Position numbers and translations under genes: made by a program. A stretch of DNA of 64,000 bases from Leptogorgia sarmentosa (Eukaryota), in contig OZ210885.1 in the NCBI GenBank assembly GCA_964658305.1, positions 5,952,001 through 6,016,000 of the forward strand. The letters run 5' to 3'. The notes beneath the pieces are model-generated. The model searched no databases. It was not told the DNA's origin and worked only from the letters and a program-made list of their open reading frames with translations. Position 1 is the stretch's first letter. Each line of letters begins with the position of its first letter. Of the stretch, positions 12,771 to 35,859 are shown in pieces.

Positions 12771-14414
12771 TCAAATGTACTCATCATCTTCATCATATTC
12801 ATTGTCATCATGATAGTCAACGGATGAATTGTTTTCACCGACATCAAAATCATCGTTGTCATCGTCGCGATCTTCGTCGGGATTATCATCGTCGTCGGAA
12901 TAATCATCTTTATCGCCGATTATCATCTTATCTTCGTCAGAATCCTCATCTTCGTCGGGATCCCCATCTTCGTCACCATCCCCATCTACGTTTGGATCCT
13001 CATCTTCGTCGAAATCCTCATTTTCGTCGGGATCCCCATCTTCGTCGGAATCCTCATCTTCGTCGGGATCCCCATCTTCGTCGGGATCCTCATCTTCGTC
13101 GGAATCCTCATTTTCGTCGGAATCCTCATCTTCGTCACCATCCCCATCTACGTTTGGATCCTCATCTTCGTCGGAATCCTCATTTTCGTCGGAATCCTCA
13201 TCTTCGTCGGGATCCCAATCTTCGTCGGAGTCCTCATCTTCGTCGGGATCCTCATCTTCATCGGAATAATCATCTTTATCGTCAATTATCATCTTATCTT
13301 CGTCGGGATCCCCATCTTCGTCACCATCCCCATCTTCGTTGGAATCCTCATCTTCGTCGGAATCCTCATCTTCGTCGCAATCTTCTTCTTCGTCGGGATC
13401 CTCATCTTCATCGGATTGCTCGTCTATTCCCGAAAATGTAACTGAGGTGTCATTGTAAAAACTATCATTTTCATCTTCTTCGGCAGAATAATGTTTGTAG
13501 TCATCTGGATTGTCATTGCCAGTAACGTTACCTCCGGAGGAAAAGATACTTCCAAGAGAGGAAAAGATCGTTTCGTCTCCAGACCTAGAACCCAATTCGA
13601 ATTTTTTCTCATTGACATAAACCCAACCCAAAGCTTCACAAGCATAAGGCCTGTCATCAATGTTACGACTGATTAATTTTGAAACAAACAGTCGAGCATC
13701 GGAGTCATCAAGGTTCTTTAAGTTTACTGAGTCACCTTTCAAAATATTTACCATGCGTTCATACAAATGCCCGAACGGATGTTCACCTTTGCTCAAGATG
13801 AAGTGAGCTATCATACCAGCTACCTGAACGTCAGATTTTTTCTTAAATCGACCTTTTCCTCCTTTCCCTAGGGTTTCGATCACTTCTGAAGGCATCCAAC
13901 CTCGAGTTCCACTTGCATTAGTCAGGACTGTCGTTTCATCTTCATTGAGAATACGGCTTATCCCAAAGTCTGCCAGTCTCATGTTATTTTTTATATCAAC
14001 GAGTACATTGGATGGCTTCAGGTCTCTATGCAATATACCTTTACTATGGAGAAATTGAAGACCAGTCAAGATTTCTTTTATCATTCGATGACTATTTGCT
14101 TCCACATATTTTAAATCTTGAGAAAGAATGTGATCGTGCAACGTTTCTTCGCAAAGATCAACAATGAGGTACATGAAGGTGTTGTCCTTGATGAAACTTT
14201 GGTAGCTGACAATAAATGGTGATTTTTTAGTGTTAATCAGTTTTAAGATTTTTTTCTCATTTTCAGCCATCTTTTTAGCCGTTGCTATCAACATTCTTTT
14301 TACAGCCACTTCACTGCCATCTTGCATGATACCCACGTAAACGGAAGTGCCCATAGATCCAGTTCCGAGGGAAAAGAATTCAGTCGTCGCAACACGTTTT
14401 ACTGGTGGTCCAAC
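12771..14414 (-). CDS. IRE1/RNase L-like Ser/Thr kinase domain plus long acidic repeat tail (terminal exon)
   Basis: GTGSMGTSVY, VAVK, HRDLKPSN, DFG, GTRGW, SDVQVAG, GEHPFG; phase-0 acceptor TATTAG at 14415; no KEN RNase domain. Confidence 0.88.
   Translation of the reverse strand, partial: VGPPVKRVATTEFFSLGTGSMGTSVYVGIMQDGSEVAVKRMLIATAKKMAENEKKILKLINTKKSPFIVSYQSFIKDNTFMYLIVDLCEETLHDHILSQDLKYVEANSHRMIKEILTGLQFLHSKGILHRDLKPSNVLVDIKNNMRLADFGISRILNEDETTVLTNASGTRGWMPSEVIETLGKGGKGRFKKKSDVQVAGMIAHFILSKGEHPFGHLYERMVNILKGDSVNLKNLDDSDARLFVSKLISRNIDDRPYACEALGWVYVNEKKFELGSRSGDETIFSSLGSIFSSGGNVTGNDNPDDYKHYSAEEDENDSFYNDTSVTFSGIDEQSDEDEDPDEEEDCDEDEDSDEDEDSNEDGDGDEDGDPDEDKMIIDDKDDYSDEDEDPDEDEDSDEDWDPDEDEDSDENEDSDEDEDPNVDGDGDEDEDSDENEDSDEDEDPDEDGDPDEDEDSDEDGDPDENEDFDEDEDPNVDGDGDEDGDPDEDEDSDEDKMIIGDKDDYSDDDDNPDEDRDDDNDDFDVGENNSSVDYHDDNEYDEDDEYI
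12800..13420 (-). repeat. Coding 18-bp minisatellite encoding (D[PS]DED[EG])n
   Basis: Units such as GATCCCGACGAAGATGAG repeated in frame, with larger internal duplications. Confidence 0.9.
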
Positions 14415-15593
14415 CTAATATAAGGAGAAAAAACAAAATTCACTGGAGCGTGTAAAGCAGTACGAATATGCCATAGAAGAGTTTTGAAGGGTTGACATTT
14501 TATACAATTTTATACACATTTATTTTAATATTCCACTCGTACCACTGGTATGCTTAGCAACTCAATTGCCTATGATAAAACATAATAATATGTAAATATT
14601 TGAGATTATATCTTGCTATTTATTCCTTCCTATGTTAAAAACTAGAGACTTGAGACGAAACGTTTTAATCTTCCTAGATAATGGAAGGACGAGGAAGAAA
14701 TGACGAGGTGATTCAGCATAATACAGGGTGCATGAAAAAAACTGACCAAATTTAAAATCGCTGTCAACTTCGGGAAGCTGCTTAAGGAACGAAGTTGTTA
14801 AAGTGATATATTGAATAGTTGTCGTTGTGCGATGAAAGAGTACAACCTCGTGTAACTATATATATACTAAAAGCAACAATAATCAGGCGCGCAAAAAACC
14901 TCGTGCCATGTTCGTGTCCTCCCGTAATGGGCCACAGCTCGCCCGAGAAACGTAACTATGAATAAGAACTAATCTATATATAATATCTTATGAATACAAC
15001 AGTCCTGCCCCGTGTCCAATAACGTTCAGACAGAAGTTTTTGGTTCATGTAGATAGTTTATATTTACTTAAAATGTATGAATAAACGCAAAAAACTCATG
15101 GCCAGAAATACGCGACACGCAATTGCGGAATCTACGCGATGATCTGTCGAATTAATATAATTTGTATTGGAGCGAGATAAATTTTGTTGAATTTAAAAAC
15201 GCAAGTTGTGTTAAAAACTTAAAAAGCGAAAAACGCTCAATATTCAAACAAACGAAATTTGTGTTAAATCACTAAAATGGTTTCGAATAACGAGGACTAA
15301 AAATGATGACACCTGCATTCAAAAAAAGTTGTCCCTCAGAATTTTTTAAAAACGAGACCAGTCTGTATAGATTAGTAAACAATTAATAGCGCCTGAAGCA
15401 CATATCCATAAGAAAAACCTACTCTGTGGGTGCAAGGAACATACAGTTCAACAAACGAAAGTACCTTCCATAAGTTGAGGTTCCTCTGGCTCAGCCGTAC
15501 GGGCTACATTTTTTCAGTGGGGGGGGGGGGGGGGGGGCAGAAAGATCTTTGCCCGAATTTGAGGGTAGGGAATGTCACGAGGCGCCACCGCTT

Positions 15594-16009
15594 ATTTCGA
15601 TTCCGTCGACGGTCGGACACCTCCGAGATGGTCGGACACCTCATTATAATACATGAACAGCTGTAGCATTAGAAATAAGCATAATAATAATGTTTAATGA
15701 GGGATCAGGCAGCTGGAGCAGTTGGTGCAATGGCAAGGGTGCGGATTTCCGTGCAGAGCACCAGGGTTCGATCCCCATCGGGGTACAATATTTTTTCCTT
15801 ATTTTTTTCGACCTTTAATCTCAAACTTTAATTTTGCCAAAGATTTTTCAACTATTTTTTTTCAAAATACGCATATTATTTTGTCAATGTTTAAAGTTAG
15901 GGTTAGGAATAGGGTTTGGGTTAGTGTTATGTGCTGTTGAGGTGCTGAATACGAGTGAATGAGGTGTCCGACCATCTCGGAGGTGTCCGACCGTCGACGG
16001 AATCGAAAT
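15594..16009 (+). mobile_element. MITE with 52-bp TIRs, tRNA-derived core and GGTTAG motif, nested in another MITE (~15490-16262)
   Basis: ATTTCGATTCCGTCGACGGTCGGACACCTCCGAGATGGTCGGACACCTCATT and its reverse complement; internal TGGTGCAATGG...GGTTCGATCCC; GTTAGGGTTAGG. Confidence 0.8.
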
Positions 16010-16570
16010 TTGCGGCGCCACCATGGTTGGCGCCAAGCGAGAAATATTTGAACTTTTACAACCTCTGGATTGCCGGAAACGGCGATTTCAGAGTCCTAAC
16101 TCCACTTTCTTGGTACACTCGTTCAGGTGAACGACTGGAGGATTGTTGACATTACCTTATTCCTCAGATTTTTTCCCGAATTATGTTCAAAATCAGCGCC
16201 CGAATTTTCCAATTTGAAATTTTTTTGGGGGGCAGTTGCCCCCCGCCTCGTACGCCTATGGCCTAACATAAAAAGTCAAAATCCTACCTTATTTTCGTTT
16301 GTTCCAGCAATACATACTTTCAGGGTAAATTAGAGCTTTATTATGTTAAAAGTTAAAACGTACTTCGTTGGGTATAAAAATGGTCATAACTTTGCGAGCT
16401 TTTAGCCGATTTACTCCGTGAAACTTTCATATTGAAGCTTTCAATTTGATCGTGAATATAAACAGAGTTTCAAATACTCACACGCATACACAATGCTTCT
16501 AAATACCGCTGTAATGCCCGCAATCTACAATATTACATGATATTTTGAACCCGTCGACGTGACGTTGACG

Positions 16571-16936
16571 GTTAGTGTTAGATCATAATTTATAGAGTTC
16601 ACGTACCATGACGTCAGAATTCTATTATTTAAAAAATGTTTTTTTGACGACAGTTTTCAGCGAGCTCGAAATTAGCTCAGGAGGTTAGGCACGCGGTGCT
16701 TGCGTAGCTGTTTAAGAGTTCAAGCCCCGGTGTGACACTTCTCTTTCGCGTTGGCGATTTCAAGTTAAAACTTTTTTTCCTCAATATTTTGCCGACCTCT
16801 ATGGTCAGGGTTAGTATTTAGGATTTGGGTTGGGATCTTAGTCTATATAAAACTAGTTCACAGCTAATACTAATACTATATTAACGGTTATATTAAAATC
16901 ATGACGTCATGGTACGTTAACTCTATATGATCAAAC
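16571..16936 (+). mobile_element. MITE with tRNA-derived core and GGTTAG motif
   Basis: Inverted ends ATAGAGTTCACGTACCATGACGTCA / TGACGTCATGGTACGTTAACTCTAT; internal TAGCTCAGGAGGTTAG...GAGTTCAAGCC. Confidence 0.75.
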
Positions 16937-17681: not shown

Positions 17682-17801
17682 TTGTGTCAATCCCTTCTTA
17701 TCCAAGGCTTTTAAGCTATCAATTTTATCACGATGTTTCCTGGATTTCTTTTGTCTTATTTTTGTGACCCTCGCATCTTTATTTTTCTTCCTTTTTGTTT
17801 C
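17682..17801 (-). CDS. 120-nt phase 0-0 exon upstream of the kinase exon (ETKRKKNKDARVTKIRQKKSRKHRDKIDSLKALDKKGLTQ)
   Basis: TTTTATAG acceptor, GTAATA donor, open frame, joins in phase to 14414. Confidence 0.65.
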
Positions 17802-17872
17802 CTATAAAAAACAAAGTAAATTACCTGTAAATGAGAGCCTAGTGCGAATTTGAAATCGTTTTACGAACGTAA

Positions 17873-17990
17873 GGCCTAGGTCAAACGTCGAACTTTTCAT
17901 GCGCCGAACCTAATGCAAATGAGCTCAAACAAAGAACTTTGCTCATTAACATTAGGTTCGGCACATGAAAAGTTCGACGTTTAACCTAGG
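17873..17990. mobile_element. ~120-bp PIF/Harbinger-like MITE; same family as 39266-39386
   Basis: TIR GGCCTAGGTCAAACGTCGAACTTTTCATG. Confidence 0.8.
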
Positions 17991-18076
17991 AAGTACGAAG
18001 TACGACGTACGAAGCTTTCGGTTTATTTAGATTGTTTGGGTACTTATAATGAAGAGTAAATGTACTTATAAATAAA

Positions 18077-18235
18077 GTTATAGAAACACGCGTGGAAGTT
18101 TGGGAGAAACGAGAAATTCCGTGGGAACACGAGCACGAAGTGCGAGTGTTTCCACACAATTTCGAGTTTCTCCCAAACTTACACAAGTGTTTCTATAACT
18201 AATATGAACACGGAAAAAATGTTTTCTATTTCCTT
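18077..18235. repeat. Palindromic MITE-like repeat (relative of the interrupted copy at ~3727-5335)
   Basis: GTGGAAGTTTGGGAGAA...TTTCGAGTTTCTCCCAAACTT foldback. Confidence 0.65.
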
Positions 18236-20034
18236 TATTAAATAGCCTTTTAAAAACAATAAAAAAGATAAATTTATTGATTTTAATTGCATTCATTCAA
18301 AGATTCATTTGTTTTTTAATTTCCCGCGCAATCCACGCAACCCTCGTGAAAATCCTCGTGTTTCTATAGTGTTATAGAAACACGGGTTTTTTGAGCTCTC
18401 GACCAATCAACGCCCGTGTTTTTAAAAGGCTATTTTATAAAACGGTTTGTAAGATGGATTATTGTCATTTCGGCAAATTAATGAGAAATTCTGCGCCTTC
18501 TGTACTTTAACTCTAGGCGTCGTAAATAATCATTGCGTTTTATCATAGGCTATAGTTTTCCTTATTTTTTATTTGATTACTTCAAAATGTTTTTTTTCTA
18601 CGATGCACATTTTTCATTTTTTATGACTGTTAAATGGTATTTCATGTAAAAAATGGATGACCATATATATTTCTTATAAAATTTAAATATCCGAGTGAAC
18701 GGGGAGACTGGAGCGAGAACGTATGTCTTCGTTCCAATGTCCGCCATTTTCTAGCAATGGTCGCTCAAGTGCCTAAAACCTGATTTATGTTTGAATAAAT
18801 CTTATCTTCAGTATGATTATAAAATAACAAGTAATCGCATTGGGTCCCTTGAATCCCTTGGTTAGACACGACTTTACAACGTTTATATAGAATTCTACTG
18901 TCTGGAGTCGGTTTCAGAATCAAATTCCCGCCATTTTCGTCGATAGAGGTTCTTTTGTATATTAGTTTGAAATATCCAATAATTTTATTCTATTATTCTT
19001 GTATCATATTGTTTTGTTATATTGCGTTACTGGCTATTTAACGTGTTGAACAGTATTATGAACTGTCGCATGACTTGCATGACTTGTGTAATATGTATTA
19101 GTTAACCTTATAGGTTTAGTATAGTTTATTTGCCACGAACTCGCACGACTGATGAACATTGAATCCACATCGAAAAATATCTATCACTATCACATCTGTG
19201 TTGTTGAGCTAAATCAACGAAGTTCGAAACTCCTCAAGCCTCTCGCGAAACGCTAAGTCAACCCCCTCCCCCTGTAGGTCCAAGAAGCGAAATCGGGGAA
19301 GCAAGATCAGCAAAGGCCTACATTGTATACCGTCGGATTCTACAGGACATCTGGCGGCAGAGTTCGATTAGGTGTTTTAAATTGGTGACAGATTTACCCT
19401 GTTTACATATATTTTGCCCTGACATGCTTTCGCGATTCGTGAAAGCTCTAAGTTGTTCTAATTGGAACTATTAGACTATTTATTACCTAGTCTACAGTTA
19501 TTTATTTAGCAGAGAACAGGGGTAACTTCCGAACAACGTTTAAAATGAGCTATCGTATGGCTAGAGCTTACATGGACAGTATGGATAAAAGTAATCTTAA
19601 ATAAACTAGGTTTTACATTATTAATTAGTACAAATTAAGATATGTACACTTGCCATTTCGCTGTTACTCTGTTACTATGAACCGCTATAATCGACGCAGC
19701 TGCGTAAAATATCCTTGTACAGTTTCACAGAATAAAGTATTAACCCTCCTTTCTTTCGTAACTCTGTAAAAGCTCCGTAGTGGCGTAGTCCGTTCACAGA
19801 ATTGGAAGCTCTGGTTCCCGGTAAGACATGTACAAGGTGATTTCCGGGTATAGTGATTTCCGGCATCCAGCTGAGTCAAAGTCAAACCCATTGAACTAAA
19901 AATAACTGAAACGCTACCTGAGATATTTGAAGCCAAACTTTTTGGTGAAATCACCAGGTCCCTGTGAGAAAATCCCGCGCGCTCATATGAAAAAATAAAC
20001 AAAAAGGCGGTCGAACAGTGAAAGGATCATCCTA

Positions 20035-20300
20035 TGAGAATATTTAGGGTTTCTACGAAAGTCTAAGTAAAAAACTATGATGCTTTTCAAACTCTAAGTG
20101 AGCATGAGAAATTAGACGGGTTCATGATGTGTATTAACAAGTTGCCTCATATAAAGCCAGATTTCGTAAAGGTTGATGAAGACTGCGAAGAGTAGAAAAT
20201 GTCCAAACTATTCGAAAGTCTACAGAAGTGGTTAAGAACAGGAAGTAAAGTCGAGGACAGTAATTCCAAACAGACAAGGTGACCCAAAAAGAAAAAGAGA
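20035..20300 (+). pseudogene. BEL/Pao LTR retrotransposon gag remnant
   Basis: Broken frame reading FYESLSK/NYDAFQTLSEHEKLDGFMMCINKLPHIKPDFVKVDEDCEE*KMSKLFESLQKWLR. Confidence 0.6.
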
Positions 20301-23300
20301 AAATAGTTTGTTTACCAGGGGCCGGTTGTATCAAAGGCATTTAGCTTAAACGGTGGATAAGTAAAAAATATCAAATAAGTTTATAGTCTTTATAAGCTAT
20401 AGACTAAAAGGAAACTAAACGTTTCTGTCTAAACATGACAACTATGCTTAGAACTACACATGCAGTTGATAAAATGTAGTTTCAATCATTTACAACACGA
20501 ATAGGAGTGAAAACATGCCTAACCCTTCATGGGCGTACTGGCCCTATCTTGTTTGGAGGGCATACTATTGTTTGCCCGACAGAACCGGTGGAACGACATT
20601 TGAAGTGGGGGAGGGAGCTAACATATACTGGGGGACGAAGCGAGAAATGGCATTTTCGAGGTGTCATAATGTACCTCTTTCGTTGTGTAATACATATTCA
20701 CCGTTCTGAAATACTTGTGCTTTGGAGTTGGAATACTTCATACAGGATGTTTTAGAGGATAATGATTTTCACCGTATAATTCGTGTTATATTGTTATATT
20801 TGAATTTTAGCTCAATTGCCTGACCGTGATGTCATCTCTAGTCCTATAGGTAGACATCTTCCATTAAGAACAACGTTCGCTTTCACGACTATGTTCTATA
20901 CTGATAATATTGTTGCATATATAATTCCGTCTCCATTAATTGAGCTACAAAAAACCTGCCATATTTCGTTCGATTAAAAACGTTAAAACATTTTCTCTCT
21001 ACAAATGACAACATGCAATAACTCGTCGCATCATTACATTCAACAACGCATATGGCATATCATCACCAGAAATCGCGGACATTCGCATTAGGGATATCTT
21101 GGGATATTGGTTTTCATTACTGTCCTTTATTATCCCCCGCTATCCCTTATTTCACTCTGCTTCGAAATTCAAAATGGCACGTCTAATGGAAGGAGTACCA
21201 TAGTAAATTACAGAGTCGACTAATCGACTCTTTACAATCGGACATTTGTTTTAAAACTGGAAGGAACCCCAAAGGAAAGTTCTATTCTGCGGAAAAAATG
21301 ATTTCCAGTGATTTCGCGCTTGATCTTCAGATTATCCATTCTCGTGAAATGGATCTACAATACTTATTGATTAAACTATGTGAATTACATCAGTTTAGAC
21401 AAAAATATTACAATGAGTCATTTCCGGAAATGTTTCGACTATGTTCGGCCGAAAAATTCTATTTTGAAAAGCGTTCGCAGCAGCCGAAGCTGTTTATGTT
21501 GCTCACGTGGACAGGGGCGAAATTTAAGGGGGGGTTAGTTAGGGGGGTGACTAACCCCCCCCCCCAATGCTTAACTTTGCAGGGCAAAGAGGGAGTTCGC
21601 AGGGCAAAACGAAATAAATATATATTCATTTGAAAAAAATTGACTATCAAGAGTTTGAAATTGCCATTAAAGTTTATATGAAACGTTTCTGTGCTTGTAA
21701 GCCGACTCGCGGAAAATACTTGCCCCCCGCCCCCCCTCCCCCCGCTCGCCAACAATTTAGGAATATTTTCTACGGTCCTGGTTATCTTGCAGGGTATTCC
21801 ATTTTCTTACAGGGCATTTTTGCCCATAACCCCACCATTGAGAAGGTGCAAGTTTCGCCCCTGGACGTGGAGATGCACTTATAGCCAGCTTCGGTTAAAA
21901 AAAGAAAACCAATAACAGCTAGGGGTAAGAAAGTGGTTGTTTTGAACTCTCTAACTAACGCTTATTTTCTGTATCATTCAAGAAGGTTAGCGTGCACATC
22001 TGGCGAGCGAGGTAATTAGTATGCAAAACGTTAGCGAGGGAAGTAATTAGTATGCATAAAGCCAATAGCGCTAATTAGTATGCAGAATGCCAACAGCGCC
22101 GGACCCAGATACGTATCCGCGGCATGTATTCCAGACACGTATCTGAGACACATGTTATAAAAGTGAACTTGCATGTATATAAGAAAGGTATAATTTTTCG
22201 GTAAAAGAGATATAATGAGTGTGTGTGGGACTGAAAGTTTAAAATAAAAGGACGTGTGACAGTTGAATAAATGTCAAATAGTAAAGTAAATATGCATGTA
22301 TTGTAATACAGAGGCGCACATGTATTGTCACATTGAATAATACAGTAGTCTTGACCCAAACCACTGTTCTGACCCTGATCTATTTCGGTTGCTCATGTTT
22401 TGAGAAAGGGCCAAATTTTTATTTTCAAACATTCATTTATGAACTTTTATTTTTAAACTTTTATAATCAAACTTTTATTTTTAAACTTGTATTTTTGAAC
22501 AACATGGTTCGTTTTATGATATAGCGTTACAGCGCTGCGCTACGAACGTTACAGGGGAAGTGTTTATTGATTCATGTTAATGATGTAGCGCTACAAAGCT
22601 AACAAATTGTGTTTAATGGTGTAGCGCTAGAAAGGTCACGACATGCATGTTGCAATAGTATTAATGAGACGATGATGATGTATAAAAGTAAGTGATAACG
22701 TAAGTAAAATAAAAGTAAGTGTAATAATAGTTAATAAAAGTTAATAAGTTAAAAGTGTAATAATAGTTAATAAAAGTAAGTGATAACAAGCACCTTTGCT
22801 TCGCAGATACAACAATCTTTGATTAATCATGCATGGCATCTGCACTCCAAACGATGTTCCCTCCGGCCTCCAGCTCAACAATACTGTAGGTGTATTGTAA
22901 ACAGAGTTTTAAACCTTGTATTTAAAAAACTTACGGCCTGTTCTGCACTCACAATACAAACCGCGTAAAAACGTTAGATTACATAATGTTCATGTCGGAA
23001 CAAGATCCATCGACTCATCGAGTGTTCGTTTTTTCGATGAAGCATCCGTCTTAAAACAAAGCCAAAACCGCGTGTATAGACACAGTAAGAAAGGACAACC
23101 GGCTGTTGAAGTTAAGCGCTATACACTTCTAACTGTCATTAGTAGAATCATACTCGTATACTATTGCAAATGCTGCAATTTGATTGGCTACTCTACTCGA
23201 TATCTATTCCTCGATAGATAGCGAGTAGCAAAATATGTGAATTTTCGTTCAAGAAAATGTCTTCTGAGACGTGTTTTTAAATTACTTTTTGCAATATTTT

Positions 23301-23413
23301 CATGTTTGATCTCTGATTCTACTAAAACAATTAGATTACTCGCTCTCGATTTCTACGAGATGATATCACCTCATAGAAATCTCGAGCTCGTAATCTAATT
23401 GTTAATTATTACA

Positions 23414-23730
23414 CGGTTAACCTTTTGCATGCATAGTCGTTTTGAACCACTTTAACATCCTGAATGGTCCGTCTTATGTATTGGAAATGCTCATTTTTTT
23501 TGAAGAATGCTTTTACTTGGTCGATCCTGTCTATGGCAATGCCCTGCTGTCGAATGGAGACATTATTGTTATGGACAACTGTGCATGGATTTAATCATGG
23601 CGCATTTGCCGAAAATGAACTGCGAACAATATTGTGAAATAATGACGTAAATTTTGTGTTTCAGCCCCCGTACACTCCTGACATTAATACGCGCAAATTT
23701 TGGTCTAGATTTATGAAACTACATTTAAGA
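23414..23730 (+). pseudogene. IS630/Tc1-mariner-like transposase remnant
   Basis: Broken frame GDIIVMDNC/GFNHG...ELRTIL*...VFQPPYTPDIN. Confidence 0.65.
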
Positions 23731-24890
23731 AGAGGGTGGTAAAGGGTATTTTCGTGATCCGTGAATGGCCAATAATATTGCTCTCGAGAAATATGAAATG
23801 AATAAATTTTGTGTCGTGAAACATGATTTGAATTGCCGCCGTGAGCCGTGATCATCGATAAACGCTCCGTGAAACGAGAATTAAGCTGTCTTCGTCGTGA
23901 ATTGTGATTTTGTCTAACAGGCAGTGCAATGCTTTGAGTGTAAAATTTCGCATACTCCAGTTACCGTCACTTACCGATGTGCTAACAGATAGACGAATAT
24001 GTGTTATTATTTTATTATTGCTATAATCAAAAGACCAAATGAAAACAAGATGGAATGAACGGAAAGAGATGGATTTTTCTCACAAATGGCCTGGCTGAAT
24101 GTGTTGGTGTTTTTTTTCAAGCACCATTCTTAATTTTAGCCACAGAACGGAGAACAAGTCACAACTGGAAAGAGATAGTTACGGACATGCGCAGATACTG
24201 ATGTTGTAAAAATTCTATTTTTCCCATTTTCAAGCCGTTTCACTGAATAGCCGTAGTTTTAATATTCTTCGGTAAAACTTTTCCAAATTTTGGTAATTAC
24301 CAAGATATTAACCAACATATTAACTTTATCATAATCCCATTTATTGGTGCAATTTTCCCGTAAGTTTCGTGAGAATATCTTACAAAATAAAGAAATGACG
24401 GACCTTAATGCGCAAAAGTTTGCTACAACGTAAGTGCAGGGAGCACCTCTGTGTTGGAATAGTCTTAGTATAGTCACCTAATTTAGCTTCGTGGCAACAC
24501 GCGTGTTTCGCGCGATCGCGCCAAAGGGAGGGTCACGTGAGTTTTGAGAAAAAAACAGTTCACTGGAGGAAACATTCAAAAAAGGTCCGCCATTGCTGAT
24601 TTGTACCTAAAACAGTGTTTTACCGACAAATATTAAAGACAACTATGTTTCATTTATTGTAAAGTTTATAGTCCGTGTGATTGTTTGTTTACTGTGTCGT
24701 GTTAAATCTTGTTTACGGGTTCGCGTTTGGGTTTGTTTCTTACTGCATCCCAGTACAACTTCAATTTACGCATATTTTACTACTGGTATTATACAATGAA
24801 ATTATACCTTGACTTTGTTTCGGTGAATATTCACCGATATCACGTCGGCGTCGGTAAATAATTGTCAATTGTTATAGTACAATTAATTAC

Positions 24891-25214
24891 GGGAAATATT
24901 ACATCCCGGGCGGAGAGAGAGGTTGAGCCAGCTATACATCAGCAGTTTCATTAGTAAAATTTCTTCGGATACTTCAGTATTTTTACAAAATAAACCAAAC
25001 CCAAACGGTAAACCTGACCCTAACAAGTCTTCCAGTTCATAAGGTTAGGGTCAGGTTTACCGTTTGGGTTTGGTTTATTTTGTAAAAATAAATGGACTTT
25101 AAAACATGAATGTATATAATTCTACTCCTGAAGTATCCGATGTAATTTTACTAATGAAACTGCTGATGTATAGCTGGCTCAACCTCTCTCTCCGCCCGGG
25201 ATGTAATGTTTCCC
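24891..25214. mobile_element. Near-perfect foldback MITE with central CCCTAAC/GTTAGGG arms
   Basis: ~135-bp arms GGGAAA.ATTACATCCCGGGCGGAGAGAGAGGTTGAGCC... and reverse complement; TAC on both flanks. Confidence 0.8.
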
Positions 25215-25586
25215 TACAATTACACGCTATAGTACAATTACACGCTATAGTACGATCGGATTGGTCATTTCAACCAAAGCAAACGTGTACTTTTGAACAA
25301 TAAAATACACTTTTTACTATAATTTGGGTGAGATCCCATGTTATGTTTTCTTCTTTTTCAAAAAAAAGCGAACCGCCAAGCCCAATATAACTTCTAGCAT
25401 TGGCATCAGAATGTCTTTGGTTATAAAAGCTTTGGTTATTCCCGAGTCATTTTTATCCAGTTGATGTTTCTAAATATAAATTAAAGATGGTGATTGTTAC
25501 AAGAAGTTAGGAATTACATCATTTTCAGAACACTGACCTGAAGCACGCCAACCAAATCAGTGAAGCCAAAATGACGCCATCGTCGA

Positions 25587-26165
25587 CATGTTTTGGTGCT
25601 AAAAATTCCATTTTCGAAGTTTTACCATGCTGATTTCTGCGCCAAAAAATACGCCGTTACATTTTGAAAACGTACCAGTTTTTATGTCAGCAAAACCAGG
25701 GCATGGTCAAGAACTGACGAAGATTGTGAAAAAAAGGCACTTAAAGCTTTTACAAATGATTTTAAGCTGAATCCCGTATTCAAACATTGAAATATTTACT
25801 CGACAATCTTGGAAATTTGGGGAGGAAAACTCGACATCTATCTATGCGATCTCTTCTAAACAAAATGCCGACCAACACTGATTTGGGTCGAAACATTTAG
25901 TATGAACTATGAAGTGTGAACTTTTCCAGTTGGGAGATGAGAACGGACACACCAGCGATCTCTGGAAATCACCTCGGCTCAACAGGATAATTCCAAAGAA
26001 CGAATTTCGCAAATTTTTGTCATCTGATCCTTTCGATACACCGCATTTGTTCACACGTTTTCTTGAACACGTCTTGAAATAAGCACTGCTACGGTTTCAA
26101 AATGTAACGGCGCTTAATTTTTTTTCAAAAACTTTGAAATTCGAATTTTGTAGCACCAAAACATG
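25587..26165. mobile_element. MITE with long imperfect TIRs
   Basis: CATGTTTTGGTGCTA...CGCCGTTACATTTTGAAA mirrored by TTTCAAAATGTAACGGCG...TAGCACCAAAACATG. Confidence 0.65.
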
Positions 26166-28400
26166 GCCGCGATGCGAATATCGAATCTGCCGACAGTCGA
26201 CCATCTCATTTGATAGTCATTCCATTATTATATGAACATTAGCATTAGCAATAAGTATTATAAAAATTTTAAAGGGAAGACCTGGTAGCTTGACGGGCTA
26301 TGGTGTAGTGGTATAAGCATGCGGAGCCCAGTGAAACGTGTCTGGGTTCGGCTCCTGTTAGTGCGCTGTTTTTTTCGTCAATTTTTTTCTTCAAAATTTT
26401 TTCTTTAAAATTTGGTCTATAACGTTAATGGCCTGTTGAATTTCTTATTATTCTAATTCGAAGTTAATTTTAAAAAATTCTGCCTTTTGCTCCAAAATGA
26501 TTTCTATCGTAATTTAATCTGCAAGTGTTTGTCTAAACGCTGAACGTGTTGCTTTTCTGTTAAAAATTGCGCCTACAGGTTTTTGGGCTGTATAAAAACA
26601 GCTTGCAGTTTTGGACGACACTACACATGTCGAAGCAAGCTTCGAAGTCACGACGTGGTAGATGGCTTTTTTCTGCGGTTTCCAACTTTTTCCAAGTTGT
26701 AAAAGTGGATTATAAGCACAGCAGAAAGCAAAATGCAGCCAAAATTTTTCCCAACATTTTTTTGTATACACATTAGATTTTGAAAATTCCCGCAAGCACA
26801 CGCTATTGCCATGCACGCATTCTAATTCACGCATGCTCAAACAAATCTCCCACTTGTTGGTTAATGCGTTCCTTAACCAGGTTGCAAATGGCCGTGTGGA
26901 ATCAGTACCTCGATCAAGCCTGACTTCAATTGATGATGGGTGAATAAACATGTCTTTAAAATAACCGAAATTAAAAACATAGCAAATCTGAATAATGCCC
27001 ATGTAAAAATTGTATCAGAATATCTAACTTTCAGAATAACCAACGTTTCGAAATGAAGTACATTGATATTAATTAGAGTTGAGCCTGCGTTAAAGAAACG
27101 TTTGGATGCGTACTGTATTTTTTGTAGTAAATAGAAACCTGAAATTATACGCTATGAAATGTACTGCCTCTTTTAACGAACCAAAATTATAATGAAATTT
27201 GTAATAGTCTACTGCACTTACTTTTGTTAATGCTTCAATATCCTCTTCTTGCTGTAAAATAGAAACAAAAAAAGTTACCTTTAATTTTTGCTTTGCAGTG
27301 TGAAGACCGTTTGGCATTCACTTGTTTAACTTGGCATGCGTTTCATGGTTTGCACAACCTCACTTCGATACAGCAACCAAAAGTTTGAGATAGCGCACCA
27401 TAGGCAATATTGATAGCGTTATCTCGATGAATGTTGACACAACCTCATTGCTGGTAAAGTAGCCTGAATAAATTGTAAGGCACCCCTCTAACGAGCAGGC
27501 GCTGACCTATTGTATCCCGGCTAACTAATCCCATCATTCATTGTGCTCAAATAATTGTGATATTACTGTATTTCACAAACATAACACAGTTTTTCAGTGT
27601 TCTCGCCCATTTCTCAACATTGAGATAAAATGCAATTTCTGCCACGGGGGAAAATATAATACAAAACATAATCCGAAGATTAACATCTTGAAACCCAAGA
27701 TATGAGTTAAAACAGGACAAGAATGAGTTTGTGATATTTCGATTTTATTACAAAATCATTATCAGACTGACTGACTGATGATGATTTTGTAATAAAATCG
27801 AAATATCACAAACTCATTCGGATTATGTATAAATACAAAATTTTGTATTATAAACAAAGTGCATAGATCTGCAAAATGCACGTCAGTGACGTCACCATAT
27901 AAAATTATGCATCGTTGCTTTAATATGCGAATAAAAATTGCCCACGTTGGATGAATATTCGTATTAATAGAATTTTTTTGCACTTACTTTTTTTTTCAAT
28001 TCTTCAATATCCTTGTTATGCTGAAGGATTAAAAATACAAGCTATTGTACTACTAAATGTACTATTTAATTTTTGTCAAAATGTTTAGTGTATGGAGTTA
28101 AAACGTCATGTCAACCTGTATGTCAAAAATGTTCAGTACGTGCTTCTCTTGGAATGTGTTCAATGTACAATTTAACTATATAAAATAAGAGCGAGGAGAA
28201 CATCATCGCAAATATGAGCTGAAATAAAACTCACTGATTAATTAAAATGACATCAAACAAACAAATTCGTTTAATTTTAGCATCGCGTAGTCATCGAAAA
28301 TGAGATTAAAAATTAAGTATAGAAATAATGGCTACCCTGCTTCATGTTTACTGTGAATGTAATAAACAAGCTTCTGAGATAATTATGACACATCTCATAC

Positions 28401-29047
28401 CATTTCTTTTATCATCTTCTTCTCTTCATCATTGCCCCATGTACTCTCCAGGATTCTCGCTGGTTCTTCAAACTCACTGCCAAGATCACCAATCAACTCC
28501 CAGACTGGTAAGTAAGCATCTGAACTGCCACGGTCAATAACTGCCCAAGTGGAATTATTTGCCAGCATTTTCTCGAATGCCTTAGGATCTGTCGTTGCAG
28601 GACCCATAGCTTGAGAGGAAAAGGTGTATAAAATACCATCAACCTTCTCGCTATGGTTCTCTGTATTGCCACTGCTGTCACTGTGTTCGCCCCTGATGCT
28701 TTTGCAAATTCCACCAACTCCTAAAGCAGATGCAGCTGATATCTGACCCTGAAGCTGTTGCGTCGCTTTCTCCATCAAAACGGATGTCGCTTCCGTGCTT
28801 GTGCTTTCGGCATCAACGATACGGAAAAGAACACCACCAAGTGTGTGGAGTCCGGCAGGAAAATGACTTCCGTAGCGTTGCATGAACCGACGGGCGGTCT
28901 TCTCATCTTTAATCGTTCTTGCCATTTTTTTGGCGCTCCTACTTAATTGCAACTGCTCCTGCGGAATGGTGAACGTTTTTTTGGCAACCCAAAAATACTG
29001 TACCACTGATGCGTTGGTGGTTTGCGTTTTCTCTGATGTTGCTTTTT
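28401..29047 (-). CDS. Exon of GVIN1/VLIG-like gene with MACPF-like signature
   Basis: FMQRYGSHFPAGLHTLGGVLF (Y-G-S-H-x6-GG MACPF motif), WAVIDRG..PVWELI; TTTTACAG acceptor (phase 1) and ATG|GTATGA donor (phase 0). Confidence 0.8.
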
Positions 29048-29949: not shown

Positions 29950-30637
29950 CTTTGCTACATCTGCTTGCCTCGCTTTCATTTACATCTCCAACAGACAGTG
30001 GGCTAAGTAAAGCAATTCTACGTCCGATGCAGCTGCTTGAAGATTTTACCAGTTGAACGTATTTGGCAGCAGCCCGGCTTTGAGAAAATTTCTCGTATTC
30101 TACCTGAATTGCGTTATTAGGACTTGACAGGGTCAATTCACTAGGCATTTCAATAAGTGGTAATTCAGCCGTTTTTGGAGGCTCGTGTTCAGAATGATAT
30201 ATTGCACAAAGCGCGCGACCACCGCTGGCCTTTCTGACCACTTCTAGGTCACTCTCGTAGGCTTCACCAACTTCAACCCCGATGTTCATTTGCTCTATAA
30301 TCCCATCCAACTGTCCGAAAAGTTCCTCAGGTTTGAGTCCGATATCATGTTTATTCCATGTAGGAGGAAGTTGAAGGATTTCCGAGACTTCTGCCATTTT
30401 TTGGTCCGCAGCTTTCTTTGCTTCCTCGGATTGCTGTTTTGCCATTTCTTTCGCTTCATTCATCAACACTTTAGCTTTATGAAGTTTCTCTTGAACAATA
30501 GTCTTTTGGACTTTCCCTTTTGCAGCCATTTCTTGAACATCTGTTGGACCAGCTTTCTCTCCGATTCGAGTATTTGCAATTTTAACCAGAACATTCACAT
30601 CTTCCCTTTCTCGAGAAGTAGCTTCCTCCCAATATTC
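29950..30637 (-). CDS. Exon of GVIN1/VLIG-like gene (coiled coil, EVVRKASGGRALCAIY)
   Basis: AATTAG acceptor phase 0, AAAG|GTATGA donor phase 1; ASGGxAL motif resembles the GVIN1 N-terminus. Confidence 0.75.
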
Positions 30638-30876
30638 CTAATTAGATAAACATAGAATTACTAGCACATGAATTATCGTCAGGCGTTAGAGTAAGGAGCA
30701 ATTTGATATTAGCAATTGGGGTGACTCATTCAGCAGTGCATCGTGATTCACACGGATTTAAATGCATTTTATCTGATAATTATTTTATTTTTAATTGTGA
30801 AATTCATGCTGAGTGGGGTGGGGGCTGTGACTGAGGGGAGGGGAGAAACATGCCTGATTACAACCTAATATCCCAC

Positions 30877-31370
30877 CTCAAGATCTTGGGCTGACATTTT
30901 GGAAAGTGATTGAAACGATGGAGCCACTTTAACAAGCTTTGTGACCCAGTTTTTTCTCACATCAATTCCTTTGGCACTCAGTCCACCAAGAACTTCAAGT
31001 TTCGGGGACAGCCTTCTTCTTACGGCATCTAATCCATCATCGCTTTTCGGGTGATTGAAAAAATATTGGGCGAGTTCTTCTACAGTGGTTAGATATTTCA
31101 CCACAAGATCAAGTGCTTCCATTTTCAAGCCCTTTTCTTCAACCAGTTCCTTCAAATCGCCACTCAACCCGCAACATGAGACAGCCCTAAGTTCAGAATG
31201 AAGCTCCTCCTTCATATTTCTGTCGGTAATTTCCGATATCCTTTTCATTAAATCACGGATGAGCCCTTCGCATACTTTGGGATTATTCTCTTGCTCCAGG
31301 CTTTTAATTCGCGCCTTTAGTTTTTCCACTTGCTCTTTTGTATTTGACGTCACTTCGCTTTTAACGTTTT
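30877..31370 (-). CDS. Exon of GVIN1/VLIG-like gene (helical N-terminal part)
   Basis: CCTTTAG acceptor phase 1, GAG|GTGGGA donor phase 0, open frame. Confidence 0.7.
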
Positions 31371-31415
31371 CTAAAGGATGGAGAAATATTTCTAAAATAG
31401 GCGACACTCTGCTTA

Positions 31416-31860
31416 TGTAAGACATGGGCTACCTATGACGCGCATGTGCGGGACCGACAGAGAACACATGTTGAGGTATGACTTTGTTGGGCATTTGTAA
31501 GCGTTTGTAACATAAATAAAATCATTCTCTTTGTCTCGTCTAGTTATTATTAACAAGACAGTACTACCCGAGAGTATAAGTTCCCAGGAGAAGGGGATAT
31601 TCGAGAATACGAAAAACGACGAGAAAGCAGGTCAGTATTTGGCAGTGTTTTTTAAAGATGATGCCAAAGCATTTTACCACCAACAGTCAGGGACTGAGGT
31701 GAGGATGAGTTATAGACAACTCTCACAGACATTGAAAGAGAGATACAAGGGGGCTTAGCGTTGTTAAAGTATAAGAAAGAGTTCAATGCTAGAAATCGAA
31801 AGGACGGTGAGTCATTACATTCATATTTGACTTGCGGCTGTCGTATTAAAGAGCTTATAA
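31416..31860 (+). mobile_element. Gypsy-like LTR (TG...CA, ~31416-31554) plus gag remnant
   Basis: TGTAAGAC...ATTAACA with AATAAA; DEKAGQYLAVF..DAKAFY...LKERY/ALLKYKKEFNARNRKDGESL. Confidence 0.55.
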
Positions 31861-33011
31861 AGTAGACCCTCTACCTGAAGACGCCACTTCTTGCTCTTCT
31901 GTACTCGACGTCGCTTCGCTTTCAACGTTTTCTAAAGAATGGAGAAATATTTCTAAAATAGGTGACACTTTGCCGTTGTCTGTTTACTTATAAATGCTTT
32001 ACCCGAATTTCTTTTTGTTGATGACAAATACAAAAGTAAGGTAGCAGCCTGTAGAGTTGGCATGTGCATAAAAGGTTTTATACGCCTAATCGCCTCAATA
32101 GAAGTGCTTACGTCACGCTAGTGTCAAAAACAATGAATTGCAATGCAATGTGGGAAACATGTGGGAATAAATTTAACTGTATTTACATGCATTGAAAAAC
32201 CATTTGACATAAGCACTTCAAAAGTCTATTCCTGCACTGCCTATCTACATATTTTTTCAATGTGTGTCTTTCCCAACTCAATTATCAAAGGGTATCCAAA
32301 AAGTATCAATTCAAGAAACTGGAGCTCTACTTAATAGAACACTTCGGTGCATGCGAGTGTCAGTGGAACTACAACACCTTTCCGCAGAAAAGAACTTGAA
32401 GTGGTTCACGACTTTGTTATGAATATGCTAAAGCTGCTGTAGCCGTTTACGACTCTAATATTATTATAAGCGTGGACTCGAACATTAGCATGTCTACAAT
32501 TTAGAAAACATAAAACTTAAAACGCGTTTTCCCTCTTTTTAAGAGAGAAACTTCAATGGTTCGGACTTTTTACTTTCATGTATATATATATATGTAAGGT
32601 TTTCTGATTCAAATAAAACTTCTTACACGTGCGCATGCTAAGGGCTTGCCGTAAATCATTTCTTGGGATATTTCGCGCGGTTGAATATTTATAATATTAC
32701 GTCATTTTAGTTCTCTTTTAATTTGAGTTAGTCCACAAAACAAGCCTGGACGCTTATAGTTCGAACATTTTACTACTATAAAATGATGAATTAGGTTCGT
32801 TTCAATCACTCTAAGTGTCAGTAGAATGAGCATGAAACTGATTTGAGAAGACTTAGTGTGACAAGGCCCTGAAATGAGCAGAGATGGAGTGCTGGACCTT
32901 TGAAATAAAGTTTTTAACTTCTAACATATATATGGAACGACGGTTCACAGCCAGTACAGCACATGAATGCTGATTGGTGAATTATTCTCACTGGTAGTTC
33001 TAGCAAACAAT

Positions 33012-33170
33012 GAACAGCACACGTCGCCAGCGTAGGTAGCACTTCAGGAAAACAAACAAGAGCAGTAACGATAAGGACAGCGAAGGGTCCGACGAAGGCT
33101 CTTCGGTCGAAACGTCGAATCTGTTTTATCGTTTAGATAGTGAGATTATCATTGCTGCTCTTGTTCGTTA
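33012..33170 (+). mobile_element. Penelope-type short insertion with hammerhead-ribozyme-like core
   Basis: 13-bp direct repeat TCTAGCAAACAAT at 32999-33011 and 33171-33183; CCGACGA-AGGCTCTTCGGTC-GAAACGTC inside a long hairpin. Confidence 0.65.
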
Positions 33171-33755
33171 TCTAGCAAACAATAGCACTTAAGTTTGCAA
33201 TGAAAACAATAGGCAGGCTTCATGCTATTCATTTAATCCCTGGGGGACGTTCCCAGCATAAGTATAGCGTGAGGCCGCGGACTTTCCACAGTTTTCTACG
33301 AAGACGGTCAAGCTGAAGGAACAACAGACACGAGGGGCTCACCGGTGAATTCTCTTGGCTTCTCTTCTATCTCTCTGACTATGTGAGTATATGTTAGAGA
33401 CGTAGAGTCATATATGATTCATAGTATTATCGTTTGTACCTAAATCAAAGGTGTATGGCTCATCCGGCAAGTCTGACAGATTTTTATTGCAGTGTATATA
33501 AAATAGCACGAAAATCGGATAAATTAGAAGTCATAGCTAATAGCTATAACTATAGCCAATAATGCACTCGTACATAAATGAAAGAAAATTATATATTCCT
33601 AAGTTTAACCTAATTATTCCTAAAATGATTCAATTTTTTATCTATCTGCATCTGCATGGTAGATTGCATAACAAGTTTAGTCAAAAGTGCATTTACATTA
33701 TTTTTACTTGAGAGACTGTGTTGTAGTAAACATTTACATTTTGCCGTAAAACCTC

Positions 33756-34150
33756 GTTCCGGGTTTTACAGATTCCGGCTTTTCATGTTCCGGGTTTTAC
33801 AGATTCCGGCTGTTCTCGTTCCGGGTTTTACAGATTCCGGCTTTTCATGTTTCGGGTTTTACAGATTCCGGCTTTTCATGTTCCGTGTATTACAGATTCC
33901 GGCTTTTTATGTTCCAGGTTTTACAGATTCCAGCTTTTCTCGTTCCGGGTTTTACAGATTCCGGCTTTTCATGTTCCGGGTATTACAGATTCCGGCTTTT
34001 TATGTTCCAGGTTTTACAGATTCCAGCTTTTCTCGTTCCGGGTTTTACAGATTCCAGCTTTTCTCGTTCCGGGTTTTACAGATTTCGGCTTTTCTCGTTC
34101 CGTTCCTCGTTCCGTTCCCAGATTCCCCGTTTCTTGTTTTACAGATAGCC
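33756..34150 (+). repeat. 31-bp minisatellite (~12 copies)
   Basis: GTTCCGGGTTTTACAGATTCCGGCTTTTCAT-like units in tandem, no spacers. Confidence 0.95.
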
Positions 34151-35852
34151 ATTCGGACCGGCCGTGTTCCATTGGCAATTGTCCTTTTGGTATTCCAGTG
34201 GCGAAGGAATAAATTGCGCGCATTAAACAGGATATATACAGCACGTTTCAGCAACCGCAAATGGATGAAATTATAACACAAATAAAAGCTAATCTGAAGC
34301 ATTTAAACTAATTTAATATGACGTGCGGCAAACTAAGGTTCTCATATTTCCTAAGTGTATCTATGGTATATTGCGTTCCAGTATACTCAGCTTCTTTGAT
34401 TTTGTTTTGGCTATTCAGTCTAGTACACGGACTGCATAAATCTTAATTGTATCCAGTTGTCTAGAATAACCCTTTTTTAACAAAAATATTTACCATACGC
34501 CACAAGTAAAATCTCAACAGCGGAAATTATGTTGATCTGTATAAGCGAAACCTTGCTTTCGTATTTCTGCAGCCATTTACATGACTTGTCGTATTCTTAT
34601 CGTTATTTGAGCCATATAATCGCATATACTCAACACAGATTTGTCTGAATTTTCCTCAACTATAAGAAAATTCAAGTTTAACGCAGTTGATGCAGCATTG
34701 TTATTTACATATAGGAAAAGCGCACTGTGTCACACTGCATACGTCATAACGACCTTTAATTTGGAGCGCAGGAATTTCATCAGGTAACATGTCTCACAGC
34801 CCAACTTTGAACGTAAAATTCGCAAACTTCTCAGTTCGAAGTTTTCAACAATATTGGTGTTAATATGCTCGCAAAAGATGAAATTTTCAGATTATGTAAA
34901 AAAATTCGAAATTTTCATTTCATGTAAGGCATGTGGCAATGTGCCTAGTTTTAACATACAGAATTCCTATGGCCATTAAATCCTATATTGGCCTGTAAAC
35001 TTCGTTTAGCTACATAATTGATTATTCAATACAATTCGTATTGACCAAATTTTTTTTCAAACTACAACACTGTTTATACCGATATAAAATATATATTTAT
35101 TGGTATATTTATTTAGAAGTACGTATTATCTTGGCAGTGTGCCTACAAATTTTAGCATACAGAATTTCCTGTATATCCTACAGGCGAGTAGATTTGGAGA
35201 ACGTAATTCAATATAATTTGTCAGGATTTGCATACCAGCAATGCGTGAGCTGCTATTTTCAGTAAAGCAGATGATTAATGTGAAATCTCATTTCGATTAT
35301 GTAGCGGTGAGTGGTGCGCAAATGTATAAATTGAGTCATAGTTTGTATGATCTCGAAATGAGTTTACCGACATAATAAACTCAGATTCCGCAGACGTTTT
35401 GAGGTCGATTACGATAAACCAAACTCTTTAACACATGCAATAATAATTCAAGATGCTTCTTGTATAAATGTACGTGCATGGTATTATCTTAAAGTCACTT
35501 CAACCTATGAAAATTTTGATAGTGTTACTTCGTGCCAGAGCGCATGTACAGTATCAAATATTTTGTAGTTTCAGGGCGGAAATCCTGCCAAAAATTGAAA
35601 TTCTGTGATATTTCGGCGATTGCGCGAAACCGTGGCAATTGCACAATGTCCGATGTATATGGACTAAAAGAAATACCGAGTCTCATACTCAGTACTTGTC
35701 TTTACTAGTCGGGCACTAGAATGAATATATATCAGTTTAGGGATTTATTTTTTATTTTTATTGCTACTGTATGTATGCGTGGCTGCCGTGTTGTATTCAG
35801 ATGTAGCTACAAAGACAGGCCAAATGCGAGAGTTACAAATTAAGATATATAC

Positions 35853-35859
35853 CTGCCAT
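35853..35859 (-). CDS. Putative start micro-exon ATG GCA G of the GVIN1-like gene
   Basis: GAAATGGCAG|GTATAT, phase 1, compatible with the acceptor at 31370. Confidence 0.45.

Follow-up and report, generated by a model that had tools for sequence, protein, structure and literature searches.

A candidate MACPF and IRE1-type kinase chimeric gene in Leptogorgia sarmentosa

Do minus-strand exons encoding a MACPF module in Leptogorgia sarmentosa continue, across a long interval containing dispersed repeats, into exons encoding an IRE1-type kinase, and if so, what might the joined protein do? An earlier, sequence-only reading of this locus had proposed such a fusion gene and likened it in concept to MLKL. 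We addressed both questions within a window of 64 kb, the whole stretch of DNA that was analysed.

Gene structure

The six exons proposed earlier are present on the minus strand with AG/GT ends and compatible phases (end phases 1, 0, 1, 0, 0), and they translate, as claimed, into 1199 aa plus one stop (3600 nt). Three further small exons had been missed, two of them between exons 4 and 5, where no other exon was thought to lie. The resulting nine-exon model is open for 1239 aa, its 3720 coding nt are interrupted by no stop or frameshift, and all of its splice sites are canonical. Splice scores given below come from a hand-set generic matrix that was not trained on this species.

We infer exon 1 (35853-35859; 7 coding nt including the start codon, end phase 1, donor 6.3 bits), because it is too short for homology support. 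The first of the added exons (31931-31875; 57 nt, phase 1-1) is open, with an acceptor of 7.7 bits and a donor of 6.5 bits. It repeats the acceptor and start of exon 2 in tandem (90% identity over 84 nt) and may be either included or skipped in splicing. Exon 2 (30877-31370; 494 nt) encodes an N-terminal helical region and exon 3 (29950-30637; 688 nt) a helical linker, the first MACPF strand and a diverged hairpin 1; their nucleotide identities to L001, a contig of a relative, are 72% and 76%, respectively. Exon 4 (28401-29047; 647 nt) supplies the MACPF core, the signature motif and a diverged hairpin 2, and ends in a phase-0 donor. It is followed by micro-exon A (28020-27988; 33 nt, acceptor 9.8 bits) and micro-exon B (27251-27222; 30 nt, acceptor 13.9 bits), both phase 0-0 and coiled-coil-like. 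Micro-exon B is a duplicate of A and aligns with both A and its flanks. The two micro-exon donors, at 8.5 bits each, tie with that of exon 2 as the strongest in the gene.

The putative fusion intron (17802-27221) spans 9420 nt, more than any other in the gene (the second longest has 3921 nt), which counts against the join. It holds dispersed repeats and hairpin elements, with 1526 nt of the interval covered by repeats found within the window. Downstream of it lie exon 5 (17682-17801; 120 nt, phase 0-0, donor 3.6 bits), which encodes a basic helix linker (linker profile E 1e-4), and exon 6 (12771-14414; 1644 nt), which encodes an IRE1-type Ser/Thr kinase, an acidic tail and the stop.

Family and conservation of the two halves

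Exons 2-4 encode a GVIN-type MACPF module, as judged from Pfam and from the fold of a 60%-identical relative. The signature motif is read directly in exon 4, whose ORF scores 24.4 bits on Pfam MACPF PF01823 (cut-off 21.5), and six long relatives carrying a URGCP GTPase domain match the module at E 1e-25 to 1e-43. The MACPF identity and GVIN-like character claimed earlier for the N-terminal half are thereby upheld. ORFs of genomic relatives end just past the position matching the end of exon 4, and exon 4 itself has five near-identical database copies. In a quick tree of 43 MACPF rows, the window gene falls in an intron-bearing subclade (support 96).

The structural model of P0001 (pLDDT 64.5, pTM 0.37), which is the relative's protein and not the window protein itself, contains a bent four-stranded MACPF sheet with two hairpin clusters. 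Its best Foldseek match has E 5e-6, and the 41 top-ranked VIA rows are all of MACPF type (highest Z 9.4, rmsd 6.6, 205 aligned); a PDB sequence search with the MACPF-family profile returned nothing significant. The region encoded by exon 2 is modelled with pLDDT 95.8 as a bundle of three helices and a small helical domain, and matches generic helical bundles only (best Z 7.8, rmsd 2.1, 62 aligned; none with Z of at least 8). One structure search gave a SAM-like match (Z 5.0), which is absent among the 50 matches listed for the exon 2 model. Unlike secreted perforin or perforin-2, the protein has no predicted signal peptide or transmembrane helix, with a hydrophilic N-terminus and a highest 19-residue hydropathy of 0.88.

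Exons 5 and 6 derive from an octocoral family of ankyrin/IRE1-like kinases and come without ankyrins or an RNase domain. Exon 6 scores 143.5 bits on Pkinase, and its VAVK, HRD and DFG motifs are intact, with the catalytic Lys and Glu also present. The 16 best PDB sequence matches of the kinase are all IRE1 (E 5e-30 to 4e-29; next family 1e-21), in agreement with the type first assigned to it. No KEN RNase domain was found, either by Pfam in exon 6 or by tblastn of the window with the KEN region of P0211. The kinase is instead followed by a 257-aa tail that is 59% Asp/Glu and encoded by 18-nt repeats, and it groups with an acidic-tail subclade (support 91) in a quick tree of 53 of about 120 kinase rows. 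Its closest relative, P0110 (77% identity), has its start called at a Met just 7 residues ahead of the linker motif and may be a stand-alone kinase.

Judged by sequence conservation, both the MACPF core and the kinase look constrained. The core keeps 104 of 124 conserved columns, compared with 105 in its closest relative, and the MACPF part has a dN/dS of 0.30 against L001. The kinase keeps 101 of 105 family-conserved columns, which is the median of 118 relatives.

The join between MACPF and kinase exons

Neither unit appears complete by itself. Exon 4 and both micro-exons end in donors, and read-through of exon 4 meets a stop after one codon. Searches of the window found no VLIG-type GTPase (tblastn with the C-terminal parts of five relatives), as had been noted before, no MATH domain (profile search), and no match to the profile of the roughly 100-aa C-terminal domain usual in this MACPF family, a profile that recovers the last exon in 5 of 8 related loci at E of about 1e-41 to 1e-49. 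On the kinase side, exon 5 has no in-frame Met, and in exon 6 no Met precedes the one within the glycine loop. Exon 5 is homologous in frame to the internal linker of ankyrin-kinases (ungapped, 47% over 38 aa to P0146 and 39% over 31 aa to P0218). An out-of-frame ATG in exon 5 was considered as an ancestral start and rejected, as the in-frame homology runs through it. Because no last exon can be recognised for the MACPF unit, and no in-frame start for the kinase unit ahead of its glycine loop, the simplest reading is that together they probably constitute one chimeric gene.

The missing last exon, the missing first exon and the homology of exon 5 add to the support that the fusion had when first proposed. 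The micro-exons are the only open, symmetric candidates above splice-score thresholds in 28400-17802. Micro-exon A has a match of 23 in 33 nt in contig L001, which is uninterrupted, starting 3 nt past the projected end of exon 4; this score is reached by only 10 of the 10,566 33-mers in the interval, all 10 overlapping at micro-exon A. With the micro-exons in place, the uncertain join shortens to 27222 to 17801 (9.4 kb).

Two tandem genes are an unlikely alternative. Here the MACPF gene would end after the micro-exons, by read-through or in an unrecognised short last exon such as a 166-codon open frame at 27014-26514, and the kinase would have a tiny first exon of its own. The MACPF gene itself starts with a coding exon of just 7 nt, some kinase relatives have short N-termini without ankyrins (P0110, P0128, P0133 and P0145), and the interval contains 14 candidates that combine an ATG with a phase-0 donor (threshold 3.5 bits). 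A separate kinase first exon between 17801 and 28401, raised at the outset as the outcome that would speak against a fusion, therefore has candidates in the interval; none of the 14, however, has homology support, and neither a profile of 38 nor tblastn of 48 N-terminal parts gave a credible ankyrin exon in the window. As for the last exon, a phase-0 AG at 26989-26988 opens 157 codons of the 166-codon frame, with ATTAAA at the stop. Its acceptor nevertheless falls below the scan threshold, a frame this long arises in 22 of 300 resampled introns, and it has no Pfam match, Atlas recognition or homolog support. Its codon use is non-coding-like at -0.05 bits per codon, compared with +0.07 to +0.26 in eight of nine reference ORFs (the ninth, a GPCR, scores -0.07). 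We rejected it as a likely last exon on these grounds.

Less likely still is an accident or artefact: a 3′-truncated MACPF-MATH-type paralog beside a 5′-truncated kinase paralog, or a misassembly across the repeats, with the chimera transcribed but non-functional, or untranscribed. Both halves do belong to expanded families, the interval contains dispersed repeats, and hairpin decay (below) could represent early loss of function. Exon 4 also has its near-identical copies, yet we found no kinase relative above 78% identity, although the length floor of 300 aa, together with breaks of short contigs at the acidic repeat, may account for this. Against an accident stand the uninterrupted frame with its canonical splice sites and the fact that MACPF core and kinase are as conserved as in their relatives.

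A single chimeric gene thus remains the most likely reading, and MACPF-kinase would likely be a new domain architecture, judging from the proteins compared; we found no description of it in the openly licensed literature. No kinase is carried by any of 284 MACPF relatives, and none of the 120 listed kinase relatives aligns to the MACPF part. This absence weighs little, because 13 of the 15 nearest-clade MACPF rows are single-exon genomic ORFs and the kinase search covered proteins of up to 958 aa. Of 8 loci recovered from metagenomes, none has a kinase on its contig; viral contigs yielded no locus for the MACPF or the kinase half; and exact look-up of three window ORFs in a protein collection found none.

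Membrane-inserting hairpins

Conservation within the MACPF module is uneven. With hairpin boundaries drawn by us, the two hairpins keep only 12 of 26 family-conserved positions, compared with 104 of 124 in the core (Fisher p 1.2e-4). They have lost the glycine and aromatic residues of the family, retain no aromatic residue at all and have gained Arg, Lys and Pro. Among relatives, an aromatic is missing from hairpin 1 in 0 of 103 and from hairpin 2 in 2 of 103; in the nearest clade, 13 of 14 members have one in hairpin 2. Of the conserved residues of hairpin 2, the window gene retains 6 of 13 and P0001 10 of 13. Hairpin dN/dS is 0.83 on 47 codons, a value at which relaxed and positive selection are inseparable.

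The diverged hairpins and intact kinase motifs lead us to favour the MACPF part as a scaffold for kinase activation over an MLKL-like pore, and they make the MLKL concept of the earlier reading a weak analogy. The least likely of the explanations is that a real fusion encodes a pore-former of the cytosol, with hairpins refitted to a new membrane target, and that the kinase attached to it controls or sets off membrane insertion and cell death. In its favour, the MACPF fold is retained in the P0001 model, mean hairpin hydrophobicity lies within about 1 SD of relatives, and 3 of 5 substitutions in the near-identical copy P0230 fall in hairpin 2, as diversifying selection could give. Against it, the hairpins have the residue losses and gains described above, the kinase shows no pseudokinase switch, and the exon 2 model, with its generic bundles, identifies no four-helix-bundle killer domain.

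A candidate upstream element

About 210 nt upstream of the ATG, on the minus strand (36068-36083), lies a triple tandem core of three TTTC units spaced 2 nt apart, which we take to be an IRF-type motif and which was noticed post hoc. It is the only match in the window, and 5 of 100 shuffles give one anywhere; a shorter form of the motif is present in 32 of 100 shuffles. No such motif lies close to the start of L002, L004 or L005. We regard 36068-36083 as a candidate immune-inducible promoter element. In Nematostella, cGAMP induction was unaffected by IRF knock-downs (PMC8713801).

Proposed explanation

IRE1 is activated by oligomerisation. We tentatively propose, at somewhat less than an even chance, that the locus encodes one cytosolic protein in which the MACPF module, rather than forming a pore, serves as a scaffold whose clustering activates the kinase. 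The exons would splice via 27222 to 17801 into a protein of about 1,240 residues. Such a gene could have arisen if a rearrangement within the phase-0 intron that follows the MACPF module had exchanged the family's usual last exon for the two final exons of a kinase gene with an acidic tail. Immune induction would act through the IRF-type element. In the protein, MACPF modules oligomerising side by side would gather kinase domains, held on coiled-coil stalks, so that they trans-autophosphorylate; the MACPF module would occupy the place of the sensor, which in related kinases belongs to the ankyrins.

MACPF modules of this family are elsewhere fused to GTPase, MATH, jacalin, ricin-type lectin, SPRY or DOMON domains. 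It is conceivable, though we would not call it probable, that in the intron-bearing octocoral MACPF clade the phase-0 intron is a plug-in site for signalling outputs (MATH/TRAF in one member, an active IRE1-type kinase in the window gene), with the hairpins retired. If so, a former pore-forming protein would now act as an inducible ring for signalling or as a decoy, and plant immune receptors with kinase fusions would have an animal counterpart. A genuine splice would mean that a perforin-type fold has been put to new use as an intracellular kinase activator.

Comparison with known systems

The window gene shares with GVIN1/VLIG (URGCP_GTPase PF25683) an N-terminal MACPF-type module (24-29% identity over 330-630 aa to the six long URGCP-bearing relatives) and the lack of a signal peptide. 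It differs in being about half as long and having no GTPase, a kinase following instead. Closer are the stand-alone coral GVIN-N/MACPF proteins (such as Oculina ACROYT_G022711, Stylophora 'very large GTPase 1' and Paramuricea CAB3991233.1; 50-55% over about 600 aa), which also have a phase-0 exon boundary after the MACPF domain. These proteins keep Gly/Phe-rich hairpins, whereas those of the window gene have diverged, and they end in a domain of about 100 aa, unnamed in Pfam, whose exon is absent here. Short and with swappable C-terminal modules, they may offer a route to the role of the GVIN1 MACPF module. Closest of all is P0001/L001 (60% over 634 aa), a MACPF-coiled coil-MATH protein that shares a segment like micro-exon A and a diverged hairpin 1; it has a MATH/TRAF domain where the window gene has its kinase, and its hairpin 2 is better kept.

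For the kinase half, linker and kinase are 55-78% identical to octocoral ankyrin IRE1/RNase L-like kinases (Dendronephthya, Paramuricea), with the same exon boundary before the kinase. The window gene has the MACPF module upstream in place of ankyrin exons; among the 120 octocoral kinase relatives listed, 46 carry ankyrins and one a KEN domain. Fusions of KEN domains to IRE1/RNase L-type kinases with ankyrins have been described (PMC3710099). Compared with IRE1 and RNase L, the window gene lacks a luminal domain, transmembrane helix, ankyrins and KEN RNase.

MLKL is a pseudokinase with an N-terminal four-helix bundle. The likeness to the window gene is a membrane-attack-type module N-terminal to a kinase fold. 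The differences are that this module is a MACPF domain rather than a four-helix bundle, that the kinase is catalytically intact rather than a pseudokinase, and that it is the membrane-inserting part whose sequence has diverged. If the plug-in reading with its retired hairpins is correct, the window gene would reverse the logic of MLKL.

A nine-exon gene model

The six minus-strand exons of the sequence-only reading (35859-35853, 31370-30877, 30637-29950, 29047-28401, 17801-17682 and 14414-12771) have the splice dinucleotides and phases that it listed and translate to 1199 aa. Its domain calls also held, as exon 4 clears the cut-off of the Pfam MACPF family and exon 6 encodes a protein kinase with a long acidic repeat after it. 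Its exon list proved incomplete, having missed a 57-nt phase 1-1 exon that duplicates the start of exon 2 (31931-31875) and two micro-exons, A (28020-27988) and B (27251-27222). Micro-exons A and B were the only exons returned when we scanned 28400-17802 for open, frame-preserving exons with an acceptor of at least 5 bits and a donor of at least 6 bits, using a hand-set matrix; they are copies of each other, and their peptides are coiled-coil-like.

The uninterrupted contig of the closest MACPF relative (L001) aligns with exons 2, 3 and 4 in the same order. Micro-exon A shares 23 of 33 nt with this contig in a match that begins 3 nt past the projected end of exon 4, and an equal score is reached by only 10 of the 10,566 33-mers in the interval, all 10 of them overlapping micro-exon A. 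The resulting nine-exon model comprises 3720 nt (1239 aa) with no internal stops. The exon 5-6 join is uninterrupted in relatives, including the closest kinase relative, P0110, leaving 27222 to 17801 as the sole join without homology support.

Relatives of the MACPF half

None of the 109 relatives of exon 4 sized 378-2000 aa (observed range 392-781 aa) has a kinase or a GTPase, and those that are named belong to stony and soft corals. Such proteins usually end in a second exon encoding a ~100-aa domain, found in 5 of 8 fetched loci; the window contains no such exon. This domain has no Pfam match in L002, L003, L004, L005 and L008, or in P0003 (a canonical family member), P0016 and P0050. The window gene falls within a 15-row clade (support 96) with P0001, the protein of L001:25-2409, and 13 genomic ORFs that each cover a single exon. 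P0001, whose structure model has a predicted MACPF fold, carries a coiled coil and a TRAF-type MATH domain in place of the usual C-terminal domain, making it another instance in which the C-terminal module has been exchanged; its first presumed membrane-inserting hairpin has diverged. No MATH sequence occurs in the window. The 5′ end of the contig (L001:1-55) appears to duplicate an internal stretch whose end lies close to where exons 3 and 4 meet in the window gene, an assembly artefact or a back-splice.

We also searched 1.8 billion representatives with a MACPF-family profile, considering the best 150 of 564 matches. Pfam annotation covered 41 proteins of the family: P0001, P0003, the full set of 30 representatives sized 690-1300 aa, and 9 of 29 longer ones. 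Partners of the MACPF module identified in this set are GVIN GTPases, jacalin, ricin-type lectin, SPRY and DOMON; the last four types of domain occur with this same GVIN-type MACPF module in P0338, P0343, P0404 and P0280. A kinase profile matched none of 284 MACPF-family proteins.

Relatives of the kinase half

The nearest solved-structure relatives of the window kinase are IRE1 proteins, and its nearest sequences, among the matches listed, are octocoral kinases (Paramuricea, Dendronephthya). It keeps 101 of 105 conserved columns and groups in an acidic-tailed subclade. Among 120 listed of the 189 matches of 300-958 aa, 46 carry ankyrin repeats and one a KEN domain; no ankyrin exon was found in the window. 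Exon 5 is homologous, in frame and without gaps, to the family's pre-kinase linker. Exon 5 offers no in-frame Met, and in exon 6 the earliest one falls within the glycine loop, so the kinase requires a coding exon further upstream whose end is in phase 0. The named relatives point to an octocoral as the probable host. Elsewhere in this octocoral family, the kinase ORFs P0192, P0218 and P0221 end in a second linker copy, suggesting tandem-kinase genes, and P0211 has a KEN domain flanked by two kinase domains.

One gene or two

The MACPF unit has donors and no last exon, the kinase unit has acceptors and no first exon, and the two share a strand and compatible phases. Both are undamaged, with conservation on par with their respective relatives. 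This arrangement predicts that they probably yield one fused transcript. Against fusion stand the putative 9.4-kb, repeat-bearing intron, 14 weak candidates (ATG plus donor) for a very short first exon of the kinase, the possibility that P0110 stands alone, and a 166-codon open frame shortly past micro-exon B. This frame has non-coding-like codon use, is equalled in length in 22 of 300 resampled introns, and matched no family and nothing in Atlas. Two hairpin (MITE-like) elements, each copied elsewhere in the window, lie just upstream of exon 5 (17868-18200); the fusion breakpoint could lie near them.

Hairpin divergence and a possible mode of action

We assigned both presumed membrane-inserting hairpins from the P0001 model topology and aligned the domain with 103 full-length relatives. 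In the hairpins the window gene keeps 12 of 26 family-conserved residues, compared with 104 of 124 elsewhere in the domain (Fisher p 1.2e-4); in this alignment its hairpins have no aromatic residues, and Arg, Lys and Pro have appeared in them. Relative to L001, dN/dS reaches 0.83 over the 47 hairpin codons, against 0.30 for the core and 0.47 for the N-terminal region. The simplest reading would be that the core was retained for self-association or sensing and membrane insertion abandoned. Because hairpin hydrophobicity lies within ~1 SD of that of the relatives, the protein may instead be a retargeted pore.

IRE1 is activated by oligomerisation. By analogy, a scaffolding MACPF core could gather kinases on coiled-coil stalks, leading to activation in trans. 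Neither a signal peptide nor a transmembrane helix was found in the nine-exon protein, which would therefore be cytosolic.

A triple core of the IRF-type motif lies 210 nt upstream of the ATG; it is the sole copy in the window and arose in 5 of 100 shuffles, the motif having been noticed post hoc. This candidate element suggests that the gene may be immune-inducible. PMC13319465 and PMC8713801 describe induction of IRF2, GBPs and perforin-2 by dsRNA or cGAMP in Nematostella, where IRF knock-down had no measurable effect according to the latter.

Other features of the window

On the plus strand, tRNA-Met genes alternate with 90-nt tRNA genes in a tandem array with a period of about 370-385 nt (1-2889), followed by an intronless rhodopsin-family GPCR (6253-7230); an intronless RecQ-type helicase ORF lies on the minus strand (8655-10403). 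Long plus-strand ORFs of 278, 467 and 744 aa (43256-49038), with an NHL repeat as their only clear family match, are possibly a mobile or virus-derived element. By eye, we recognized a plus-strand LINE-like retroelement with ORF1 and endonuclease/reverse transcriptase (50143-55021) and, by eye only, several transposase-like and recombinase-like ORF remnants (55670-63547). Fragments of a broken, partial LINE-like copy lie upstream of the gene (37375-39272).

Comparison with known systems

The window protein lacks the GTPase of GVINs and is not a GVIN; lacking a sensor domain and KEN, it is neither IRE1 nor RNase L (KEN-kinase architectures are treated in PMC3710099). The earlier likening to MLKL is weak, as the parts of the window protein are not MLKL-like. 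No paper describing a MACPF with GVIN or a fused kinase was found in the open-licence literature searched. The predicted MACPF-kinase, which combines parts of two expanded octocoral immune families, is likely a new architecture.
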